Part shown: one piece after another, positions 831 to 13,131 of the stretch
Layout: the number at the start of each line of letters is the position of its first letter
Numbering within the stretch: position 1 is the stretch's first letter
NCBI GenBank assembly: GCA_913020725.1
Contig: CAJWCD010000105.1
Span: 1 to 13,257 of the forward strand
Reading direction: 5' to 3'
DNA length: 13,257 nt
From: an uncultured Pseudomonadota bacterium
GTDB lineage: Bacteria; SAR324; NAC60-12
Translations under genes and position numbers: made by a program
The notes under the pieces: generated by a model
Told to the model about the DNA's origin: nothing
The model's database searches: none
What the model saw: only the letters and a program-made list of their open reading frames with translations

Positions 831-1748
831 CTATCCTCCAAGCAGCACTCCGGAGGCAAGGCTGTACTTGGAGACAAATTCGGCGGCTGAAATCTTCTTG
901 GCATCGTGGGGCCGGACTCGCTGCACGAGGATGCCGCCTCCATTGGCGGCGACGGTGAACCCCTGCTCCGAAATTTCGACCACCTCGCCGGGTGCGCCTG
1001 AGGCTTCGACCTTGGTGCAGTCGTAGATTTTCAGCACATTGCTCTCGTGTGTGGTCCACGCGCCCGGTTGGGGATTGGTGCCCCGGATCAGGTTATGAAC
1101 CTCAGACACCGATTGCGACCAGTCAATTTCCGCGTGTTTGTGTTTGCACCAAGATTCATAAGTTGCTTGCGATTCGTCCTGCTGGACCCGCGGCGGGTTT
1201 CCGGAGCGCACAAGGTCAATCGCTTCCAAGGCAGCCTCAATTCCCAAAGGAAAGATTTTCTGGAAATAGATGGTGCCAAGTGTGTCCTCCGGACCAACGT
1301 CCACCTCCTTCTGCAAGAGGATTTCGCCTTCGTCAAGGCCGTCATTCGCCCAAAAGTAAGTCAGCCCTGTCTTGGTCGCACCACCGATGAGCGCCCAATT
1401 GATGGAGCTTGGGCCGCGATGCTTGGGCAGGAGTGACGGATGGAAACAGATGGAGCCGTGGGTTGGAATGTCACGGGCTGCTGCGGGTACAAAGAGCGTC
1501 ACATACGCCATCACGCAGAGCCCGGAGTTGAACCCCCGCATCTCGTCCAAGACTTCTTGGTCCTTGAAGTTGGGAGGCTGAACGACTGGAAGTCCTTGCT
1601 CCAGCGCAAACTCCTTGATTGGATCCACTGGTTTGCCCTCCTTGTCGGGCGCACAATAGACGGCAACGACTTCGTCCTCGCCTTTTTTCAAGACGGCTTC
1701 CAAGCACTCCTTGCCGAAGGCCTGCTGGCCCATGATGATCAGTCGCAT
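831..1748 (-). CDS. Stand-alone formyltransferase/hydrolase (formyl_trans_N + C), resembling the 10-formyl-THF dehydrogenase N-terminal domain; probably not a true Met-tRNA formyltransferase
   Basis: 305 aa. Folate-binding motif HPSLLPKHRG (His103), GLDEG (Asp139), HNLIRGTNPQPGAWT. The N-terminal GQQAFG and APDKEGKPVDP, and INWALIGG and YFWANDGLD, follow ALDH1L1 (GQSLFG, VPDKDGKADP, INWTLIHG, IFWADDGLD) rather than Fmt (GTPDFA, QPDRPAGRG). Confidence 0.85.
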   Translation of the reverse strand: MRLIIMGQQAFGKECLEAVLKKGEDEVVAVYCAPDKEGKPVDPIKEFALEQGLPVVQPPNFKDQEVLDEMRGFNSGLCVMAYVTLFVPAAARDIPTHGSICFHPSLLPKHRGPSSINWALIGGATKTGLTYFWANDGLDEGEILLQKEVDVGPEDTLGTIYFQKIFPLGIEAALEAIDLVRSGNPPRVQQDESQATYESWCKHKHAEIDWSQSVSEVHNLIRGTNPQPGAWTTHESNVLKIYDCTKVEASGAPGEVVEISEQGFTVAANGGGILVQRVRPHDAKKISAAEFVSKYSLASGVLLGG

Positions 1749-1778
1749 GTTTGCAATTTCCTTGCTTATCTGAGTTGG

Positions 1779-3023
1779 TTAAACCGCTTTTTCCTCTTTA
1801 GCCGCTGCAATCTCGGCATTGCTGAATCCGAGTTCCGTCAGGACTTCATCTGTGTGTTCCCCCAACAGCGGTGAACGTTGCACGTCTGTTGGCGAATCTG
1901 ATAGTTTGATCGGATTTCCAACCGTCAGGTATTTACCTCGCTCCGGATGATCAACCTCGACAATGGTGCCGGTCGCCCGCAGCGACGGTTCCTCGGCTAA
2001 CTCCTTCATGCTGAGGATCGGCCCACAAGGGACATTGAGTGGATTGAGGATGTCCATGACCTCGTACTTGGTTTTGGTCTTGGTCCACTTCTCAATTTCT
2101 TCAAAGAGTTGCTCAAGCTTGGGGAGGCGAGCTTCCGGAGTTGACCATTCCGGATCCTCCAACCAATCCTCGTGTCCGATGACCTTGGCAAGTGCAGGGA
2201 ACGCGGCTGCTTGAGTGATCACATAGCTGTAAGCATCCGGGTCGGTTTCCCAGCCTTTGCACCTCACAATCCAACCGGGTTGCCCTCCCCCTGAAGCATT
2301 GCCTGCACGCGGAGTCGCCTCGCCAAATTCTCCGTTCGGGTACTGCGGGTATTCTGTCAAGGGGCCATGTGCGAGGCGTTGCTGGTCGCGCAGTTTGACC
2401 CGACAGAGGTTCAAGACCCCGTCCTGCATGGCGCAGGTGATACGCTGGCCGCGTCCGCTTTTTTCGCGGTGGTACAAGGCCGTGGTGATTCCAAACGCTA
2501 AGTTCAGTCCGGTGCCAGAATCGCCAATCTGCGCACCCGTCACCATCGGGAATCGATCCAGCTCGCCTGTGGTCGAGGCCGAACCTCCTGTGCATTGTGC
2601 GACATTCTCATAGACCTTGCAGTCTGCGTAAGGCCCCGGCCCAAACCCCTTGACCGAGGCATAGATCATCTGCGGGTTGAGTTCCTGAATCTTTTCCCAA
2701 GGAAAGCCCATCCGGTCGATGGCTCCGGGAGCAAAGTTCTCGACTAAGACATCACAATGCTTGATGAGTTTGGCGAAGATTTCCTTACCTTTGACATGCT
2801 TGGTGTTCAGCGTGAGGCTGCGCTTGTTGTGATTGAGCATCGTGAAGTAGAGGCTGTCCACATCCGGGATGTCGCGTAACTGTCCGCGTGTCGCGTCTCC
2901 AACTCCGGGACGTTCCACCTTGATCACATCGGCGCCAAACCATGCGAGCAATTGGGTGCAAGTCGGTCCCGATTGCACATGGGTCATGTCCAGAATCCGG
3001 ACACCTTCTAAAGCTTTGGTCAT
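1779..3023 (-). CDS. frc: Formyl-CoA:oxalate CoA-transferase (family III CoA-transferase)
   Basis: 414 aa. [51 protein letters not shown], catalytic Asp168 in IGDSGTG (Asp169 equivalent), and glycine loop [10 protein letters not shown]. Closely follows Frc/YfdW. Confidence 0.93.
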
Positions 3024-3065: not shown

Positions 3066-4805
3066 TCACTTGTACATGGTCTGAGCTTTGGTGCCCGGTG
3101 CATACTCGTTCGGATCAACCCAAACATTGATCACCGCCGATTTTCCGGACGATTTCACGGACTCGCGGGCGCGCTGCAAGGCCGGTTGAATTTCGTTCGG
3201 ATCACGGATTTCTTGTCCAGAACCACCGAGCATTTCGGCAAACGTCCCAAAGGGCACATCACCGAGTTTGTTGCCGACATTGCCGCGTTGCTCTCCGTAC
3301 TTGGTGACCTGTCCGTAGCGGATTTGGTTCATGTGCGAGTTGTTGCCGACAATGGCAATGTAGGGTGCGCCGAAACGGTTTGCAGTCTCCATGTCGAAGG
3401 CAGTCATGCCGAACGATCCATCACCATAAAGGCAGATCACTTCCTTCTGCGGATGAGCCAATCCCGCCGCCATCGCAAAGCCGGTGCCCACACCCAGCGA
3501 ACCAAGCGCTCCGGGGTCCATCCAATTTCCGGGACCACGCGGCTGCACGGCTTGGGCGCTGATGGTCACGATGTCTCCGCCATCGCCAATGTAGATTGTG
3601 TCCTCGCTGAGGAACTCATTGATCTCCCAAGCGAGGCGATAGGGGTGGATGGGGTTGGAGTTCGACAGGAACATCGGCATGAGTTTTTCCGTCTTCTCGG
3701 CTTCCTCTGCCCGGAGTCCGTCCAACCAGCCTTGGCGTCCCTTTGCACCGTTGTCCGAGCGACCTGTCGCCGCCTGCAAGGCTGCTGCGAGGATGGCCCC
3801 CGGATCACCAGCCAATCCTAACGAGATGTCTCGGTTCTTCCCTACCGTCCGGTAGTCCTGATCGATTTGAATAAGCGTCGCTTGCTTGCTGATGCGTTTG
3901 CCATAGCCCATGCGGAAATCGAAGGGCGTGCCAACAATGACGATCACATCTGCTTTCTTGAACGCGCTGGAACGAGTGCGATTGAAATAATGGGGATCTC
4001 CGGGGGGCAAAATTCCACGGCTGGCTCCATTCATGTAGAGCGCAACGTTCAGGCTGCGGGCAAGGTCAATGGCGGCTTGGTGACCGCGTGACATGAACAC
4101 TTGGGAGCCGACCAACATCGCTGGACGTTCGGCCTTCACCAAGAGGTCCGCAAGTCTCTCAATATCTTCGGGATCGCCAATGGATTTGACCGAGGCGCGG
4201 TAGCGACCCGGTTCCGGAATCACGGCGCTCTCCTTAGGAATCTCCCGGTCGAGCACGTCACGCGGTATTTCAAGATAGCTCGGCCCGTAAGCTCCGGTAA
4301 AGCATTCGCGCGCTGCCATGGAGATCATGTCCGCTACCCGTTCTGTGGACATGACTCCAGATGCGAACTTGGTGATCGGCGTCATCATGTCAACGTGCGG
4401 CAGGTCTTGCAGCGACCCCATCTTGTGCTGCGTCAGCGAACTCTGCCCGCCAATGTGCAGGATGGGGCTTTCCGAGCGGAAAGCAGTGGCGATGCCCGTC
4501 ATGGCATTGGTGCAGCCCGGACCTGCCGTGGTGACCACACAGCCAAGCTTCCCGGTCTGTCGGGCGTAGCCGTCTGCTGCGTGTGCCGCCGTCTGCTCGT
4601 GCCGGACATCAATGATGCGGATGCCTTCGTCAAGACAGCCGTCGTAAATGTCGATGATGTGACCCCCACAAAGCGTGAAGATGGTGTCCACCCCTTCGCT
4701 CTTCAGAGCTTTGGCGACAAGGTGTCCACCGGAAATAACCTCTTCCGAACGGCTCTTCTTGGCGAGGGTGTCTGTTGCAGTTTGGGAGGCCGGATTGGCT
4801 TTCAT
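3066..4805 (-). CDS. ThDP-dependent acyl-CoA decarboxylase/lyase (putative non-canonical oxalyl-CoA decarboxylase or 2-hydroxyacyl-CoA lyase; ILVBL/HACL2-like)
   Basis: 579 aa. Catalytic Glu in DVRHEQ, TAGPGCTN, ThDP/Mg motif GDGSFGM...GNNS, plus FTLCGGHI and WMDPGALGSLGVG. Lies immediately upstream of frc. The ThDP family is secure; the substrate is inferred. Confidence 0.85.
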   Translation of the reverse strand: MKANPASQTATDTLAKKSRSEEVISGGHLVAKALKSEGVDTIFTLCGGHIIDIYDGCLDEGIRIIDVRHEQTAAHAADGYARQTGKLGCVVTTAGPGCTNAMTGIATAFRSESPILHIGGQSSLTQHKMGSLQDLPHVDMMTPITKFASGVMSTERVADMISMAARECFTGAYGPSYLEIPRDVLDREIPKESAVIPEPGRYRASVKSIGDPEDIERLADLLVKAERPAMLVGSQVFMSRGHQAAIDLARSLNVALYMNGASRGILPPGDPHYFNRTRSSAFKKADVIVIVGTPFDFRMGYGKRISKQATLIQIDQDYRTVGKNRDISLGLAGDPGAILAAALQAATGRSDNGAKGRQGWLDGLRAEEAEKTEKLMPMFLSNSNPIHPYRLAWEINEFLSEDTIYIGDGGDIVTISAQAVQPRGPGNWMDPGALGSLGVGTGFAMAAGLAHPQKEVICLYGDGSFGMTAFDMETANRFGAPYIAIVGNNSHMNQIRYGQVTKYGEQRGNVGNKLGDVPFGTFAEMLGGSGQEIRDPNEIQPALQRARESVKSSGKSAVINVWVDPNEYAPGTKAQTMYK

Positions 4806-4818
4806 TGAGGTCTTATTG

Positions 4819-6339
4819 TCAAGGGGTTTGCTTGTCAGTGCTTGGGAAAAACCGGTTCTTGAGGGGCTTGAACGTCGGCATTGCCAGTAAAATTAAGGCG
4901 ATGACCATGATCAAACCGGCAATCGGTCGATTAAAGAAGATTGAGAACGAACCACCGGAAATCAACAGCGATTGCCTGAGCGCTGGTTCCGCTAACGGCC
5001 CCAGCACAATGGCTAACACTGCGGGCGCCATCGGGTAGTCCAACTTACGCATCAGGTAGCCGACGACGCCAAAAACCAACATCAACCAGACATCGTGCAT
5101 GTCCATCGTCGGCACAAAACCACCGACGACACAGAGGATGAAGATGACAGGTGCTAGGATCGTGAACGGCATCTTCAACACCCAGATGAAGGCTGGGATG
5201 AAGGCGATGTTGATCAAGAGCGCAAACAAATTCGCGACGTACAAGCTGGCGATAAAACCCCAGACGAAATCAGGGTGATCCGTGAACACCAAGGGTCCCG
5301 GCTCAAGACCCCAGATCACCATGCCACCCAACAGGATCGCCGTCGTCGGCGATCCGGGGATGCCGAGCGTCAGCATCGGCAGCATGGCGCCGGTCGAGGC
5401 GGCGTTGTTGGCGGATTCCGGAGCCACGATGCCGTTGATGTTGCCTTTGCCGTAGGTTTCGGGCTCACTGGATGTGGTTTTGGCAAAACCGTAGGCCATC
5501 AACGAACCGGGGGTTGCACCGGCAGCCGGCAGGATGCCGACGAAATAGCCGAGGAACGACCCCATCAACATCGTCTTCCAAGTCCGCGTCAGTTCCACCA
5601 GATTGTCCCAGATTCGCTTGACGGAGATGGTCGCCTGCGAGATCATCGCGTTGCCCTTGGAGATTTCGATCGTCCACAGCATCTCGGCAATGCCGTAGAT
5701 GCCGATGGCCAACACCAGAAAGTTGATGCCGTGGAAGAAGCCGGGGATGTCTCCAAAGATGAGCCTCGGTTCTCCCGAAATGATATCCAAGCCGACGGCG
5801 CCAAACACCAAACCGATGAAGATGGAGAACATCGTCTTCGGAATGTCGTCACCGCCAAGCCCGATGAAGGTGGCGAAAGCCAGTAGCATGAGGGCGAATA
5901 TTTCTGGGGAACCGAAGGTCAGCGCCACCTCAGCCAGTGGCGGCGCAAAGAGCGTGAACAAAACGACCCCGACACTACCGCCGACAAACGATGCCGCCGC
6001 TGCTGCCACCAGTGCCTTGTCGGCCTTGCCCTGCAAGGCCATGGGGCGTCCATCAAAAGTCGTTGCTACTGCGGTAGATGCGCCGGGGATGCCAAGCATG
6101 ATCGAACTGATGGCGCCCCCGTACATGGCTCCGTAATAGATTGCACCGAGAAAGATGATGGCACCCGTCGGCGGCACCAAGAAGGTCATGGGTAACAAGA
6201 TCGCGACACCATTGACGGAGCCCAGTCCCGGCATGGCGCCGATAAAGAGGCCAATGGTGCATCCGAGTATGATGAGCGCGAGGTTCAGCGGCTCAAAGGC
6301 GATGGCAAAGCCATTGAGGAGAAGAGACAGAATGTCCAT
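4819..6339 (-). CDS. tctA: Tripartite tricarboxylate transporter, large permease subunit (TctA family)
   Basis: 506 aa, polytopic. GAMPGLG, IYYGAMYGGAISSIMLGIPG, TTFDGRPMALQG, APESANNA, PMLTLGIPGS and GLEPGP are TctA signatures. Confidence 0.95.
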   Translation of the reverse strand: MDILSLLLNGFAIAFEPLNLALIILGCTIGLFIGAMPGLGSVNGVAILLPMTFLVPPTGAIIFLGAIYYGAMYGGAISSIMLGIPGASTAVATTFDGRPMALQGKADKALVAAAAASFVGGSVGVVLFTLFAPPLAEVALTFGSPEIFALMLLAFATFIGLGGDDIPKTMFSIFIGLVFGAVGLDIISGEPRLIFGDIPGFFHGINFLVLAIGIYGIAEMLWTIEISKGNAMISQATISVKRIWDNLVELTRTWKTMLMGSFLGYFVGILPAAGATPGSLMAYGFAKTTSSEPETYGKGNINGIVAPESANNAASTGAMLPMLTLGIPGSPTTAILLGGMVIWGLEPGPLVFTDHPDFVWGFIASLYVANLFALLINIAFIPAFIWVLKMPFTILAPVIFILCVVGGFVPTMDMHDVWLMLVFGVVGYLMRKLDYPMAPAVLAIVLGPLAEPALRQSLLISGGSFSIFFNRPIAGLIMVIALILLAMPTFKPLKNRFFPSTDKQTP

Positions 6340-6399
6340 CGGTGCTTGGAACTCAGGTCAAGTTACAAAGTCGGTTACTCTGATTGTAGCTTGGCAGGA

Positions 6400-6897
6400 T
6401 TAATAGAAAAAATCGAATATAGGCTCAAACCACGGGTCCGTGAAGCCCTTGGGCAGGGTTTTCTGCAAAGCAATCTCAAAAAACAAAAATGTCGCGATCG
6501 GCGTTACAAACGCGAAGGTACCCGTCAGCAACCATGAATGGCCGCCCATGAATCTCAGGTAAAAGATCAGGAAAAGCGGGATGGCCCCGTAGGCGCCGGT
6601 GATATGGAACAGACCAATCAGCGCGGTGAGAGCGCCAACATTGAGGAGGAACAGCTTGAGTGCACGGCTGTCCATGTAAACTTCTTCTGAGCGGGATTCC
6701 GGTGTTATCCGTTTTGCCCAGCGATAGGCGATGGCGAAGCAACACACCAACATTCCTGCCGCCAGCCAGAACGGCCATGCGCCGCCGCCAGGCCCTTCAC
6801 CGGGAATCCAGCCGATCGGGAGTTCGGCGCTTTTCCACATCAAGTAAAGGGAGAAAGCCCCCATGAAGATGCTCATGACGAGTTCTGCCATGCGCAT
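6400..6897 (-). CDS. tctB: Tripartite tricarboxylate transporter, small permease subunit (TctB family)
   Basis: 165 aa, about 4-5 TM helices. GPGGGAWPFW near the N-terminus and FFEIALQKTLPKG near the C-terminus. Located between tctC and tctA, with SD-like GGGAG upstream. Confidence 0.9.
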   Translation of the reverse strand: MRMAELVMSIFMGAFSLYLMWKSAELPIGWIPGEGPGGGAWPFWLAAGMLVCCFAIAYRWAKRITPESRSEEVYMDSRALKLFLLNVGALTALIGLFHITGAYGAIPLFLIFYLRFMGGHSWLLTGTFAFVTPIATFLFFEIALQKTLPKGFTDPWFEPIFDFFY

Positions 6898-6946: not shown

Positions 6947-7930
6947 CTACTTGAGGACGCCCATCTTTTGCAGCATGACCTTGTGGATCGCCTTTTCCCG
7001 GAGCCAGTATTTCATCAGGATGTCGCCGGTGAGGAAACCACCCTGTAGGCTCTTTTTGGCCATATACCCCTGCCATTCGTCGGAACCGTAGATCTGTGCA
7101 AACAACTGGCGGTAATAGGTTGCCGCCTCCTTGCTCATGCCCGGTGCACCAACGACCGTGCGCTGCATAAAGTAGACGAAGTCCTTGCCCAACTCCTTGA
7201 AGGTAGGCGCATCGGCAAACAAAGGCAGTCGTGTCGGTGTGAACGCAGCAATTGCTCTTGTTTTGCCAGCTTGATAAAAGCCAAGCTGCTCGGAAGGATT
7301 GTTGACCGTTGAGTTGGCGTTGTTCCCGGCCAGTTCCTTGGCCACGCGTCCTCCCCCCTTGTAGGGCACATACTTCATGTTGAGGCCATAGGCCTTGTTC
7401 AGGAAGTCGGTCAGCAGATTGTCTTCGGAGTTCTTGCCGGTGCCGGCCATGATCCAAGCATTGCCCTTGGCCTTGGCCGCCCGGACAAACTGATCAACAT
7501 TCATGATGCCGGAGTCCACATTGACCCACAGCAGGAACGTGTCTTCGGCCATCCGTCCGACAGGCGTGAAGGTGGAGATGTCCACCCCAAGTCCCGGCTG
7601 GCGCAGCGGCGTGGTGTAGAAGCTGTTCAACGTGAACATGATGGTGTGGTTCGGGTCTGAGGCGTTCTTGACATGAACGAGCGCTTCAGCACCCGATCCG
7701 CCCGGTTTGTTGATCGGCGTAAACGGCTTCGATGACAACTTATGCTTGCTGATGATGTTCTGCATGTACCGCACTGCCTTGTCCGCGCCACCACCTTTGC
7801 CGGCCATGACGATAAACTCAACCGGCTTTCTCGGCTCCCAAGCCGAGGCGATCATTGGAGCGAACACCAAGGCCAGACCTAACCCAACGACCATGCCGAG
7901 GCTCATCAGTTTATTGGCTAACTTGCTCAT
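6947..7930 (-). CDS. tctC: Tripartite tricarboxylate transporter substrate-binding protein (TctC/Bug family)
   Basis: Signal peptide ending ASA/WEP, then PVEFIVMAGKGGGAD, NKPGGSGA, YVPYKGGG and DAPTFKELG. Start moved from 7969 to the ATG at 7930 (MSKLANK), which has the SD-like AGGAG upstream. Confidence 0.92.
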   Translation of the reverse strand: MSKLANKLMSLGMVVGLGLALVFAPMIASAWEPRKPVEFIVMAGKGGGADKAVRYMQNIISKHKLSSKPFTPINKPGGSGAEALVHVKNASDPNHTIMFTLNSFYTTPLRQPGLGVDISTFTPVGRMAEDTFLLWVNVDSGIMNVDQFVRAAKAKGNAWIMAGTGKNSEDNLLTDFLNKAYGLNMKYVPYKGGGRVAKELAGNNANSTVNNPSEQLGFYQAGKTRAIAAFTPTRLPLFADAPTFKELGKDFVYFMQRTVVGAPGMSKEAATYYRQLFAQIYGSDEWQGYMAKKSLQGGFLTGDILMKYWLREKAIHKVMLQKMGVLK

Positions 7931-7968
7931 AATCTTCTCCTGAAATGAGTTAATGAAAAATGTAAACA

Positions 7969-7991
7969 TTCTGAAACCCCCTGTTTCAGAA
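7969..7991. promoter_or_regulatory. Operator-like palindrome at the predicted transcription start
   Basis: TTCTGAAAC-N5-GTTTCAGAA, a perfect 9-bp inverted repeat beginning 6 nt downstream of the predicted -10 box. Confidence 0.6.
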
Positions 7992-8361: not shown

Positions 8362-9072
8362 TCAATACTCATACTCATCATGGACGCTCCCATCCGACTT
8401 GAGGAAGGGAGGAACACGCCCGACCAATTCCTCCAGCATGATCAGTTCCTGATCGGAGTGGTTGAACATTGGTGCGAGAGCAATCCGTTTTTCCGCTGCG
8501 TAAATGAAGCGTGGGGCCTCGTGATGCTGGGTGGTCACGGTTTCGGTGATGTCCGGAGTTTCCTTGATCTGCAAATGGGAAGTTCCATAACAGGTGCAAA
8601 TGTAGGTTTTCTCGGAGTCGCTCTCCAAGTAGGCACCGGTTCCCCGGATGGCGATCACGGCGGTGGGCGTTCTCAACATACGCTTTCCCCGTGCGAAGAC
8701 CGAGAGGATCGCACCGAAGCTGAGTTGGAATCCAGAGATTTCGTTTGGTTTCGTACTTGCTGCCGGTGTCAGGACGACCCGGCTGTTCTTGTGCAGCAGA
8801 AAGGCATCCTTGCCGACGACAAAGACGGCAGATCCATCCGGGCCTGTACTCAAGGAGGCGTCATTGGGAACTTTCAGCCTCCCGGTGGCGGTCAGTTGTT
8901 TGGAGGTGATCCGCTGACCGTTGATGAGAACTTCGCCTGTAACCTTTCTCACGCCACTGCACAGGGTCACTGGAGCACAGCCACCCAAAAGCAAACTGAC
9001 GGCTCCCATCGCACCCAACATGGAGAGCAGGTTCAGCATCTCCCGCCTGTCGTATCGTTTCCAGTTTGACAT
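8362..9072 (-). CDS. Predicted Tat-exported lipoprotein with FecR-like beta domain
   Basis: 236 aa. Twin-arginine-like DRREML, hydrophobic stretch and lipobox LLGG/C. STGPDGSAVF and RTPTAVIAIRGT are typical of FecR-like domains. SD-like AAGGA upstream. Confidence 0.75.
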   Translation of the reverse strand: MSNWKRYDRREMLNLLSMLGAMGAVSLLLGGCAPVTLCSGVRKVTGEVLINGQRITSKQLTATGRLKVPNDASLSTGPDGSAVFVVGKDAFLLHKNSRVVLTPAASTKPNEISGFQLSFGAILSVFARGKRMLRTPTAVIAIRGTGAYLESDSEKTYICTCYGTSHLQIKETPDITETVTTQHHEAPRFIYAAEKRIALAPMFNHSDQELIMLEELVGRVPPFLKSDGSVHDEYEY

Positions 9073-9180: not shown

Positions 9181-10206
9181 TCAGTGGGTGAAGCGATACG
9201 CCGAGTCGTAGTAGAGGTAGGGATTGAGCGCGAGGTTGCGGGCGAGCAGGGGCAGGTGATCAGTGGCGGGCGTAGCGGGTTCGCGGACGATGCCCCAGCG
9301 TTCCGTTTCGGGATTGAGTTCGACTCGGTAGGTGCCGAAATCCACAAAGGCGCGCTGCTGCGTTTGGTGGAGGTAGAGCAGTTCCGGAGCGAACTCCAAC
9401 CGGGGGGTTCCAAGGATTTGGATGCCCGTGTCGTTGAGCTGAAGCTGGTAGTTGAGCAGTCGGGGCGGCACCCACGCAGCAGTCAAGAGCGAGGTTTCCT
9501 GAAGGCGCTCTGAGTGATCCTGAATCACGCGGGTTTCGGTGCTGACGTTTTTCAGTTTTCCCTGCACTGCGAGTGGGGCCAATTCCCGGAAATTGATGAA
9601 GCGTTGGTAGTTGCGGCGCAGAAATCCCGTGGCGGTCCTGCGCTTCATGCGCAGTCCGATGGAATTCAGAGAGTAGCGGGTCAGGAATTCCGGGGGATGT
9701 TGATAATTCAAATCCTCGACAAAGAACAAGCCTGTGTCGTTGATGAGTTCTGTCGTGAGCAGGGCACCGGACGGCGTGTTGATCTGCACTTGGAGTTGCA
9801 TCTCGTCCGCGAGCCGGAAGGCGCCCCGCAGTTTCTGGAACTCGAAGTGGACCCGCCCTGCGATCAGCACCCGGGTCCAGTGCGGACGCTCCGCTTGAAA
9901 TCCGGAGTGGTTGGGATTTTGGGCAAGCCCCGCCTCCAGCCGCTGGTACGCTTTTGCAAATTTATGCTCCTGCAAATAATGCTGATAGCGCCGGAAATTG
10001 TCGTCCGCGACCTTGAGGTTCGCCCGCTCTAGGGCTTCCCGGATTTCCACATCCTCCGGATCATCAACATAAGCGATGCGGTACTCGATGGCGGCTTCCT
10101 CCCAACGGCCTTGAGCCTCCAGCTCCTGCCCTTGGTCGTAGTGGTACGAGCAACTTGCAAGCAACCCGCAGAGCAAAACGAAAATCGTAATTCGCAAGGA
10201 TTTCAA
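9181..10206 (-). CDS. Hypothetical lipoprotein with N-terminal TPR-like repeats
   Basis: Likely TTG start at 10206 (or 10197), just after the guaB stop: LKSLRITIFVLLCGLLAS/C lipobox, then TPR-like HYDQGQELEAQGRWEEAAIEYRIAYVDDPED and AYQRLEAGLAQNPNH. The extension to 10467 overlaps guaB and is rejected. Confidence 0.75.
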   Translation of the reverse strand: MKSLRITIFVLLCGLLASCSYHYDQGQELEAQGRWEEAAIEYRIAYVDDPEDVEIREALERANLKVADDNFRRYQHYLQEHKFAKAYQRLEAGLAQNPNHSGFQAERPHWTRVLIAGRVHFEFQKLRGAFRLADEMQLQVQINTPSGALLTTELINDTGLFFVEDLNYQHPPEFLTRYSLNSIGLRMKRRTATGFLRRNYQRFINFRELAPLAVQGKLKNVSTETRVIQDHSERLQETSLLTAAWVPPRLLNYQLQLNDTGIQILGTPRLEFAPELLYLHQTQQRAFVDFGTYRVELNPETERWGIVREPATPATDHLPLLARNLALNPYLYYDSAYRFTH

Positions 10207-10222
10207 TTGAACATACAAAAGG

Positions 10223-12056
<1,834 letters not shown>

Positions 12057-12438: not shown

Positions 12439-13131
12439 ATGCTGGACTGGAATCCGTACATCATCCTGCTGAACGTTGCCTACACGATTTGGCTGGCGGC
12501 TTTTGTGGCCAAAGACATCGTCTGGCTGCGAATGTTTACCATCACCGGCAACGTGGTGGTCTTGCCGTACTATCTCTATTTCTTTGAGAAACCGCTCTGG
12601 AACCCCATCACCTGGGTGGGCATCTACACAGTGATCAACGCGGTCATGCTGTTCCTGCTCTATCTCGAACGCAGGCCAGTGAAACTCAGCAAAGCCGAGC
12701 AGAAAATCCGGGCACTGACGTTCAAATCCCTAGAACCGCGGGTGTTCAAGAAACTGATGGATCAGGGCGTGTGGGACCGGATACCGCCCCACGTCGAGTT
12801 GGTGGCGCGGGACAGTGATCTGGACAACCTGCTGCTGGTGGTGGAAGGTGAGGCCGAGGTGGTGTTGAAACACGGAGAGCATCGCACCATTCCCACGGGT
12901 GGGTTCATTGGCGAGCAGTCCTTCATCACGGGCGGGAAGACCTCGGCGGATGTCAGCACCGGTGCAGAGGCAACCACGATTCTGCGCTGGAACAAGCAGG
13001 AACTCCGCAAGTATCTTGGACGTCACGAAGCGCTCAAGCACACCTTCGACCTGATCCTGACTGCCGACCTGATCTACAAACTGCGTGGCATGGATCAGGA
13101 TGGGCCGGAAATCGTCAACTCCCATATCTGA
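12439..13131 (+). CDS. Popeye-like membrane protein with C-terminal cyclic-nucleotide-binding (CRP-like) domain
   Basis: 230 aa. Three N-terminal TM helices with KDIVWLR and WNPITW...IN, linker ERRPVKLSKAEQKI...FKSLEPRVFKKL, beta-roll LLLVVEGEAEV...GGFIGEQSF...SADV, and C-terminal ADLIYKL. Confidence 0.8.
   Translation: MLDWNPYIILLNVAYTIWLAAFVAKDIVWLRMFTITGNVVVLPYYLYFFEKPLWNPITWVGIYTVINAVMLFLLYLERRPVKLSKAEQKIRALTFKSLEPRVFKKLMDQGVWDRIPPHVELVARDSDLDNLLLVVEGEAEVVLKHGEHRTIPTGGFIGEQSFITGGKTSADVSTGAEATTILRWNKQELRKYLGRHEALKHTFDLILTADLIYKLRGMDQDGPEIVNSHI

Follow-up and report, generated by a model that had tools for sequence, protein, structure and literature searches.

The closest described match of the protein analyzed here is the N-terminal domain of ALDH1L1 and ALDH1L2 (PDB 4QPD, 1S3I, 2BW0). 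In the accessible parts of PMC4388273 the key residues of ALDH1L1 are Phe89, which stacks on the pterin, His106, Arg114, Asp142 and Tyr200, while Ile104 takes the place of the catalytic Asn of Fmt, ArnA and GART, and in vitro hydrolysis by the N-domain requires millimolar mercaptoethanol. CoA as formyl acceptor, the central proposal of the original prediction, has precedents in LctF, a stand-alone Fmt-like protein from lactacystin biosynthesis that converts 10-formyl-THF and CoA to formyl-CoA in vitro (PMC11730586, available excerpts), and in HypX/HoxX (PDB 6J1F), where the available sections of PMC6802093 propose formyl transfer from 10-formyl-THF to CoA without a direct assay. For the Frc/Oxc cycle of E. 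coli, the accessible text of PMC3720670 proposes a priming role for ACOCT (YfdE).

The formyltransferase (FT) is encoded at 831..1748 on the minus strand of the window, the whole stretch of 13,257 nucleotides that was analyzed, which is contig C105 of a genome of 3.45 Mb (93% complete); several of the nearest named FT loci are in SAR324 MAGs at 74-78% identity. The ORF of 305 aa contains a Formyl_trans_N and a Formyl_trans_C domain and was assigned as a stand-alone ALDH1L1-N-like formyltransferase from its domains, NCBIfam scores, PDB matches, an alignment and an AlphaFold model. It is the last gene in the minus strand order tctC, tctB, tctA, ThDP enzyme, frc, FT, where domain matches identify the substrate-binding protein TctC (6947..7969, the true start maybe a few codons inside the ORF), the small subunit TctB (6400..6897) and the large subunit TctA (4819..6339) of a tripartite tricarboxylate transporter. 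These are followed by the ThDP enzyme (3066..4805) and by frc (1779..3023), encoding formyl-CoA:oxalate CoA-transferase, which scores above the TIGR03253 (693 bits, cut-off 504) and PRK05398 cut-offs and has the GGGQ loop and the IGDSG segment. The gaps are 13 bp between tctA and the ThDP gene, 42 bp between the ThDP gene and frc, and 30 bp from the frc stop to the FT ATG, the last one as originally stated. A candidate Shine-Dalgarno sequence, AAGGA (1759..1763, minus strand), lies within this gap, 10 nt before the ATG.

From the short gaps and the conserved gene order, tctABC-ThDP-frc-FT is predicted to be one operon; to this extent the claim of a shared operon stands. Contigs from four seawater RNA runs match the operon, including parts of FT, and reveal neither the expression level nor a single transcript; none of the RNA pieces listed bridges the frc-FT junction by 31 letters, and a promoter scan gave chance level. 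In 28 of 42 related loci a gene for a GntR-type regulator separates tctA from the ThDP gene; the window (6143-6399 region, 13-bp gap) lacks it. At 385-753, 77 bp past FT on the same strand, a DUF2784 membrane protein is encoded; the clusters of neighbours listed, with a cut-off of three loci, for related loci do not include it. The remainder of the window holds, on the minus strand, a 236-aa protein with no Pfam match (8362-9072), a TPR-like probable lipoprotein (9181-10467), whose listed ORF overlaps guaB by approximately 245 bases and likely has a later true start, and guaB itself, encoding IMP dehydrogenase (10223-11785). On the plus strand a protein with POPDC-like and cyclic-nucleotide-binding domains is encoded (12439-13131), and the contig end (13190-13257) resembles a partial tRNA on the minus strand, where ARAGORN calls none.

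By sequence comparison FT is not Fmt and is closest to the N-domain of ALDH1L1. Against the TIGR00460 fmt model it scores 164 bits, below the cut-off of 201.5, and a true fmt with 25% identity to FT is present on contig C29 of the same genome (G000; 243.9 bits, above the cut-off), with def on C67 and purN on C15. The possibility that FT was the only fmt of the genome was rejected when a family search found the gene on C29, which tblastn of FT against its own genome had missed. The best PDB sequence match of FT is the zebrafish ALDH1L1 N-domain with 214 bits, compared with 146 bits for the best Fmt. FT shares with ALDH1L1-N the segments GQxxFG, HPSLLPxHRGxSxINW, FW-x-xDGLD, YxxxxFP and ATYE. 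Alignment with the Fmt proteins of E. coli and G000 agrees with the predicted loss of the GTPDFA motif and of the basic loop: the N-terminal motif is MGQQAFG (IGQSLFG in ALDH1L1) instead of GTPxFA, and APDKEGKPVDP is found where Fmt has the basic RPxGRG loop. Thus FT shares the fold, the two-domain layout and the folate site with Fmt, but it differs in the Asn, the GTP motif and the basic loop. A TIGR00655 match with an ACT domain would mark PurU; no TIGR00655 match was found at C105 at E<=1e-20, nor did FT show one in the NCBIfam comparison. No carrier or ALDH domain is encoded among the 11 window proteins scanned, as had been claimed, and neither PF00550 nor PF00171 was found in 38 longer FT homologues. 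Database labels do call members of the FT family Fmt, the mislabelling that had been foreseen. The A1 profile used in searches over-reaches near E 1e-79; its one new match in a Pseudomonadota search, G725, was a true fmt adjoining def and was discarded as an FT.

Two trees were built, one of 67 rows by a quick method (34 of 101 rows left out) and one of 33 rows by a careful method without a mixture model, which carries a long-branch warning. Fmt, ArnA and PurN share one branch in both (99 SH-aLRT and 97/94, respectively), and FT with its relatives forms a separate branch (92 and 93/92), placing FT outside the Fmt/ArnA/PurN branch. The trees leave the fork between the FT branch, the ALDH1L proteins, HypX and unplaced bacterial relatives without resolution; in the 33-row tree the ALDH rows form their own 100/100 branch, with FT outside it in a neighbouring branch. 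HypX falls on the FT/ALDH side with a long branch. The AlphaFold model of FT (pLDDT 96.7) has higher TM-scores to Fmt structures (0.90-0.94) than to ALDH1L1-N (0.83-0.88), whereas Foldseek E-value and identity rank ALDH1L1-N best (37-38% structural identity); judged from the model, the fold alone would not separate the two. Some stand-alone bacterial formyltransferases (P0189, P0200, P0232, P0163, P0165 and P0175) lie near the ALDH1L branch and bear on the origin of ALDH1L1; P0200 joins that branch at 95 in the quick tree, a placement lost in the careful one.

The active site was compared in 89 de-replicated sequences from FT loci. His103 (1440-1442 on the minus strand) and Asp139 (1332-1334) are kept as predicted and invariant, together with P104, S105, G112, S114, W118, F132, G141, Y161 and F162 (all 89/89), and R111 and Y197 are found in 88/89. 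Read against ALDH1L1 in the accessible text of PMC4388273, FT residues H103, S105, R111, D139, Y197 and C101 correspond to His106, Ser108, Arg114, Asp142, Tyr200 and Ile104, so that the two share the His/Ser/Asp triad, the Arg, the Tyr and the missing Asn, and F86 (Phe in 73/89) matches the pterin-stacking Phe89. The column of Cys101 (1446-1448, TGT) has Asn in E. coli Fmt, in the Fmt of the genome itself, in ArnA and in PurN, Ile, Val or Cys in ALDH1L proteins, and Val in HypX. Among the FT sequences it is Gln in 47, Cys in 42 and Asn in none, with both variants in the same gene context, and some deep FT relatives keep Asn. The original prediction was therefore right in that a Cys replaces the Asn of Fmt, but this Cys is not conserved; loss of the Asn is the family trait, not Cys101. 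A mechanism built on Cys101 was rejected because of the Gln variants, and C101A would be a poor mutant to prioritize since the position is variable. Near Tyr197, Cys201 is present in 81/89.

FT differs from ALDH1L1 in being bacterial, in being stand-alone or fused to Fhs without carrier and ALDH domains, in forming its own branch, and in its acceptor, which would be free CoA rather than a tethered phosphopantetheine. HypX, as presented in the available sections of PMC6802093, has a similar proposed His/Asp transfer and likewise no Asn two residues before the His, but it is only approximately 17% identical to FT, and there CoA is a bound prosthetic group with a crotonase domain and the product is CO; FT has neither the crotonase domain nor the hydrogenase-maturation context. 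LctF catalyses in vitro the reaction that is proposed for FT, in the proposed direction (PMC11730586, available excerpts), but it supplies a polyketide starter and is shorter than FT (approximately 27.6 kDa tagged, against 305 aa); its clade may differ. Two matches on Streptomyces plasmids were siderophore formyltransferases, not LctF.

Association of FT with frc, which had been put forward as a check, is evident. The frc gene is directly upstream of FT in 78 of the best 80 GTDB loci, about half of which are near-identical HIMB59-like loci, while contig ends truncate the remaining two, and in 9/9 FT loci from relatives of the genome. Among 400 alphaproteobacterial genomes (one unpublished genome left out), frc above the cut-off was found in 38 and FT in 32, with both in 30; thus 30/32 FT carriers have frc and 30/38 frc carriers have FT, compared with FT in only 2/362 genomes without frc (Fisher p 1.6e-34 after exclusion of the centre genome as well, kin not being independent). 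In 40 frc loci of this sample, FT follows frc in 18, and one more is cut at the contig end. Of 15 further alphaproteobacterial FT loci, 14 have no frc directly upstream and two have fhs directly downstream. Loci L173, L174 and L175, from small genomes where Fhs was not found, have the order oxc-frc-PAS protein-frc-FT with two Frc paralogues of possibly different specificity. P0153 (Frc-FT), with a junk-like tail and seen on one contig, was not counted as a fusion, and P0157 (cation efflux and FT, one contig) was left aside.

The claim that both genes upstream of FT handle formyl-CoA is well supported for frc by its score, while for the ThDP enzyme it is an extrapolation. The ThDP enzyme is below the cut-off of every NCBIfam model shown, with 213 bits against 739 required for Oxc (TIGR03254) and 367 against 600 for HACL; canonical Oxc proteins, as in L006 and L016, score above 1000 bits, and none was found in the genome. 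The nearest solved relative is an actinobacterial 2-hydroxyacyl-CoA lyase. In the slot before frc, canonical Oxc is found 17 times and the window-type enzyme 19 times in 42 thinned loci (8 and 10 in 18 unbiased loci), never together in one slot, a pattern consistent with the ThDP enzyme doing the Oxc job. Since it is not a canonical Oxc, oxalate should be regarded as the presumed substrate of the operon. With approximately 25% identity to canonical Oxc, the enzyme is a candidate for a second class of oxalyl-CoA decarboxylase or for a 2-hydroxyacyl-CoA lyase.

The second partner of FT appears to be Fhs. Of 38 longer FT homologues, 35 carry both the FT and the FTHFS domain, 31 of them at full length (870-900 aa), and the linkers are rich in Pro, Ala, Lys and Ser in the 28 where a motif located the joint. 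One natural fusion is PZN85788.1. The fusions, which carry Phe or Tyr at position 201, group with the frc-FT-fhs loci L131 and L136 in the 67-row tree; no fused ORF was present in 80 loci from a metagenome scan with the fusion P0123. P0122 (FT-Fhs, 709 aa) was not counted as a fusion because of a junk-like tail and occurrence on one contig. Unfused fhs is directly downstream of FT in 27/42 thinned loci, 11/18 unbiased frc loci and 6/9 relatives, the annotated plasmid of strain La 6 has the order gntR-oxc-frc-fmt_2-fhs_2, with QEW23307.1 as the FT orthologue, and in L184, from a relative of the same family, fhs lies next to the operon in divergent orientation. The HIMB59-like loci all lack an adjacent fhs next to FT, and in the genome studied here a search for fhs found it beside folate genes on another contig, C177. 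Fhs is present in 31/32 alphaproteobacterial FT genomes and was not found in G314, G803, G911, G830 and G786. Adjacency and fusion would outweigh co-occurrence as a link, since Fhs is also present in 6/8 frc genomes without FT. In the metagenomic locus L196:4966-9686, which reads ThDP-frc-fhs, FT is missing from its place after frc, from which it follows that fhs can adjoin frc simply to use formate.

Collectively, these comparisons make it probable that FT performs formyl transfer between folate and CoA. Between them, Frc and Oxc regenerate a single thioester with no net gain. In the operon, TctABC would import a small carboxylate, probably oxalate in view of frc and of Oxc in the same slot elsewhere, Frc would move CoA from formyl-CoA to oxalate, the reaction established for its family, and formyl-CoA would be regenerated by the ThDP enzyme with loss of CO2, formate passing to formate dehydrogenase. 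Such a cycle would give no net thioester and would need a starter and a replacement of losses. Fhs would convert formate, THF and ATP to 10-formyl-THF, from which FT, by means of His103, Ser105 and Asp139, would transfer the formyl group to the thiol of CoA, as proposed for ALDH1L1 and HypX. The net reaction would be formate + CoA + ATP = formyl-CoA + ADP + Pi with folate as a carrier, and the pair of FT and Fhs would amount to an ADP-forming formate-CoA ligase. Action in series fits the FT-Fhs fusion, and with the transporter and Frc present, priming and topping up would be the useful direction. For the full proposal, namely a reversible 10-formyl-THF:CoA formyltransferase that works with Fhs in series to prime and top up the formyl-CoA cycle, with chemistry, direction and role all as stated, we see the chances as evenly balanced.

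The proposed priming of the Frc/Oxc cycle is shared with YfdE/UctC, as presented in the accessible text of PMC3720670, and with ADP-forming acyl-CoA ligases, which share the slot after frc. The folds are unrelated to that of FT, whose thioester would come from formate and ATP via folate. An ADP-forming acyl-CoA ligase occupies this slot in 5/40 frc loci, never with FT in the locus, and by genome it is found in 1/29 with FT and Fhs against 5/9 without (uncorrected Fisher p 0.001-0.008). With kinship taken into account, six independent pairs gave a mean of 2.3 in the expected way and 0 in the other (sign test p 0.25-1), and the exchange of ligase for FT is then no longer significant. In one of the five loci the ligase gene is incomplete, at the end of a contig, three of the five genomes without FT and Fhs are sisters, and G113, G314 and G803 carry both FT and ligase. 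The ligase, of approximately 710 aa (PF19045) and directly after frc in L118:6779-8905, L123, L125, L134, L152 and L281, is a candidate oxalate- or formate-CoA ligase.

Both directions of the FT-Fhs pair are compatible with the fusions and the adjacency, and the pair may run the opposite way, with formyl-CoA from glyoxylate oxidation or 2-hydroxyacyl-CoA cleavage giving 10-formyl-THF and Fhs running backwards to yield ATP by substrate-level phosphorylation. The ThDP enzyme being nearest to 2-hydroxyacyl-CoA lyase and the GlcD/GlcF-like genes of the genome speak for this direction, and conversion of glyoxylate via oxalyl-CoA to formyl-CoA is reported for Cupriavidus necator in the available part of PMC7486775. 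Of 150 genomes belonging to the G436 phylum, three have FT but no frc above the cut-off. In two of these, G494 and G521, FT is the first gene of a cluster that continues with the four subunits of a 2-oxoacid:ferredoxin oxidoreductase and with GlcDEF-like genes; fhs comes next in G521, and in G494 it lies behind the Glc genes on another contig. Loci of this kind (L182:4400-13300, L181:2500-8144, L278, L279) may encode a glyoxylate-to-formyl-CoA oxidoreductase; oxidative decarboxylation of glyoxylate could then supply formyl-CoA, from which FT and Fhs could yield ATP. Against this direction for the operon studied here, the transporter and frc indicate a free acid entering, and with free oxalate and Frc as activator the draining of formyl-CoA would yield no net ATP. 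The genome has no convincing acylating glyoxylate dehydrogenase (best 29-30% identity to ApbA-type neighbours elsewhere), and the oxidoreductase subunits are below all specific NCBIfam cut-offs. We consider this direction unlikely, if worth keeping in mind. A 'PanE2' label for a reductase of La 6 and its 55% match in the genome was dropped, as the ApbA match is weak and the ApbA-type gene of L143 is 24% identical.

The original prediction had FT loading THF from formyl-CoA for purine, serine and methionine synthesis, as an ATP-free bypass of Fhs. This fares poorly with Fhs in the genome and in 31/32 alphaproteobacterial carriers, adjacent to FT in many loci and fused to it in 31 proteins, where a bypass would be redundant. 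Nor would the shortcut be ATP-free, because draining formyl-CoA to folate loses a thioester, which has to be restored with ATP, and formyl-CoA removed from the Frc cycle removes the activator of the next oxalate, so that no ATP would be saved. In its favour, serine-cycle genes belong to the cluster on the La 6 plasmid, and in the Pseudomonadota-wide sample G803, G911, G830 and G786 have FT near oxc or frc with no Fhs found. The Fhs-less genomes tested have FolD, and in three of the four FT is preceded by a pair of frc paralogues, of which one could provide a net thioester, but FolD could equally supply 10-formyl-THF for priming. The shortcut is plausible in these four genomes and distinctly unlikely as the general role. 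A reversible FT fits all three settings, that is, the frc loci, the clusters of the G494 and G521 type and the genomes where Fhs was not found.

FT could also be a hydrolase, either a 10-formyl-THF deformylase substituting for PurU or a formyl-CoA hydrolase, releasing THF or CoA, which we regard as quite improbable. ALDH1L1-N has been assayed as a hydrolase in the accessible parts of PMC4388273 and no PurU above the cut-off is present in the genome or in G031 and G063, but the hydrolysis there requires the millimolar thiol, G911 and G786 have PurU as well as FT, a deformylase fused to Fhs would run an ATP-burning cycle, and formyl-CoA hydrolysis would stop the Frc cycle. Transfer to another acceptor, such as the phosphopantetheine of a carrier protein, a small thiol or an amine, might be suggested by Gln101 replacing the Asn in half of the family, by the conserved Cys201, by the many FT genes that lie away from frc and by the deep relatives with Asn. 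It appears very unlikely, since Cys replaces the Gln in 42/89 in the same gene context, the fusions lack Cys201, the clustered neighbours of FT include no recurrent carrier protein or ALDH, and none of the longer homologues has such a domain. That FT is a second methionyl-tRNA formyltransferase, in spite of the same two Pfam domains, the database labels and the high TM-scores to Fmt, can hardly be entertained with its score below the TIGR00460 cut-off, its missing Asn, GTP motif and basic loop, its position outside the Fmt/ArnA/PurN branch and the true fmt elsewhere in the genome.

The FT family is real, widespread and mislabelled as Fmt, and by its sequence and gene context FT is probably a 10-formyl-THF:CoA formyltransferase acting with Fhs. 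The reaction and the fold are already known, whereas the family and its role are undescribed in the literature found; a search mostly outside subscription papers found none that deals with the FT family, with its fusions to Fhs or with a role of this kind in oxalate metabolism. A wider and rather doubtful extension would be that FT and Fhs, fused in some bacteria, form an unrecognized formate-CoA ligase, ADP-forming and mediated by folate. It would prime the use of oxalate by marine bacteria and, in reverse behind a glyoxylate oxidation that forms formyl-CoA, would give ATP by substrate-level phosphorylation, and the animal ALDH1L1 N-domain would have been recruited from this bacterial family. 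In this reading the pair would be a one-carbon counterpart of acetate kinase and phosphotransacetylase.

The role of FT is read from genomes only, and LctF already shows the reaction in the excerpts of PMC11730586. Engineered formyl-CoA routes use a side activity of acetyl-CoA synthetase and two phosphoanhydride bonds (PMC10170137, accessible part). If the proposed role is true, a natural route from formate to formyl-CoA would cost one ATP, and FT would fill the priming step of the Frc/Oxc cycle. The FT-Fhs fusions would permit a one-protein assay of the ligase model, and the first, thiol-dependent step of ALDH1L1 could be studied on FT as a simple model. Approximately 8 of 100 sampled alphaproteobacterial genomes would then carry, filed as a second fmt, a gene that links the folate and CoA one-carbon pools.
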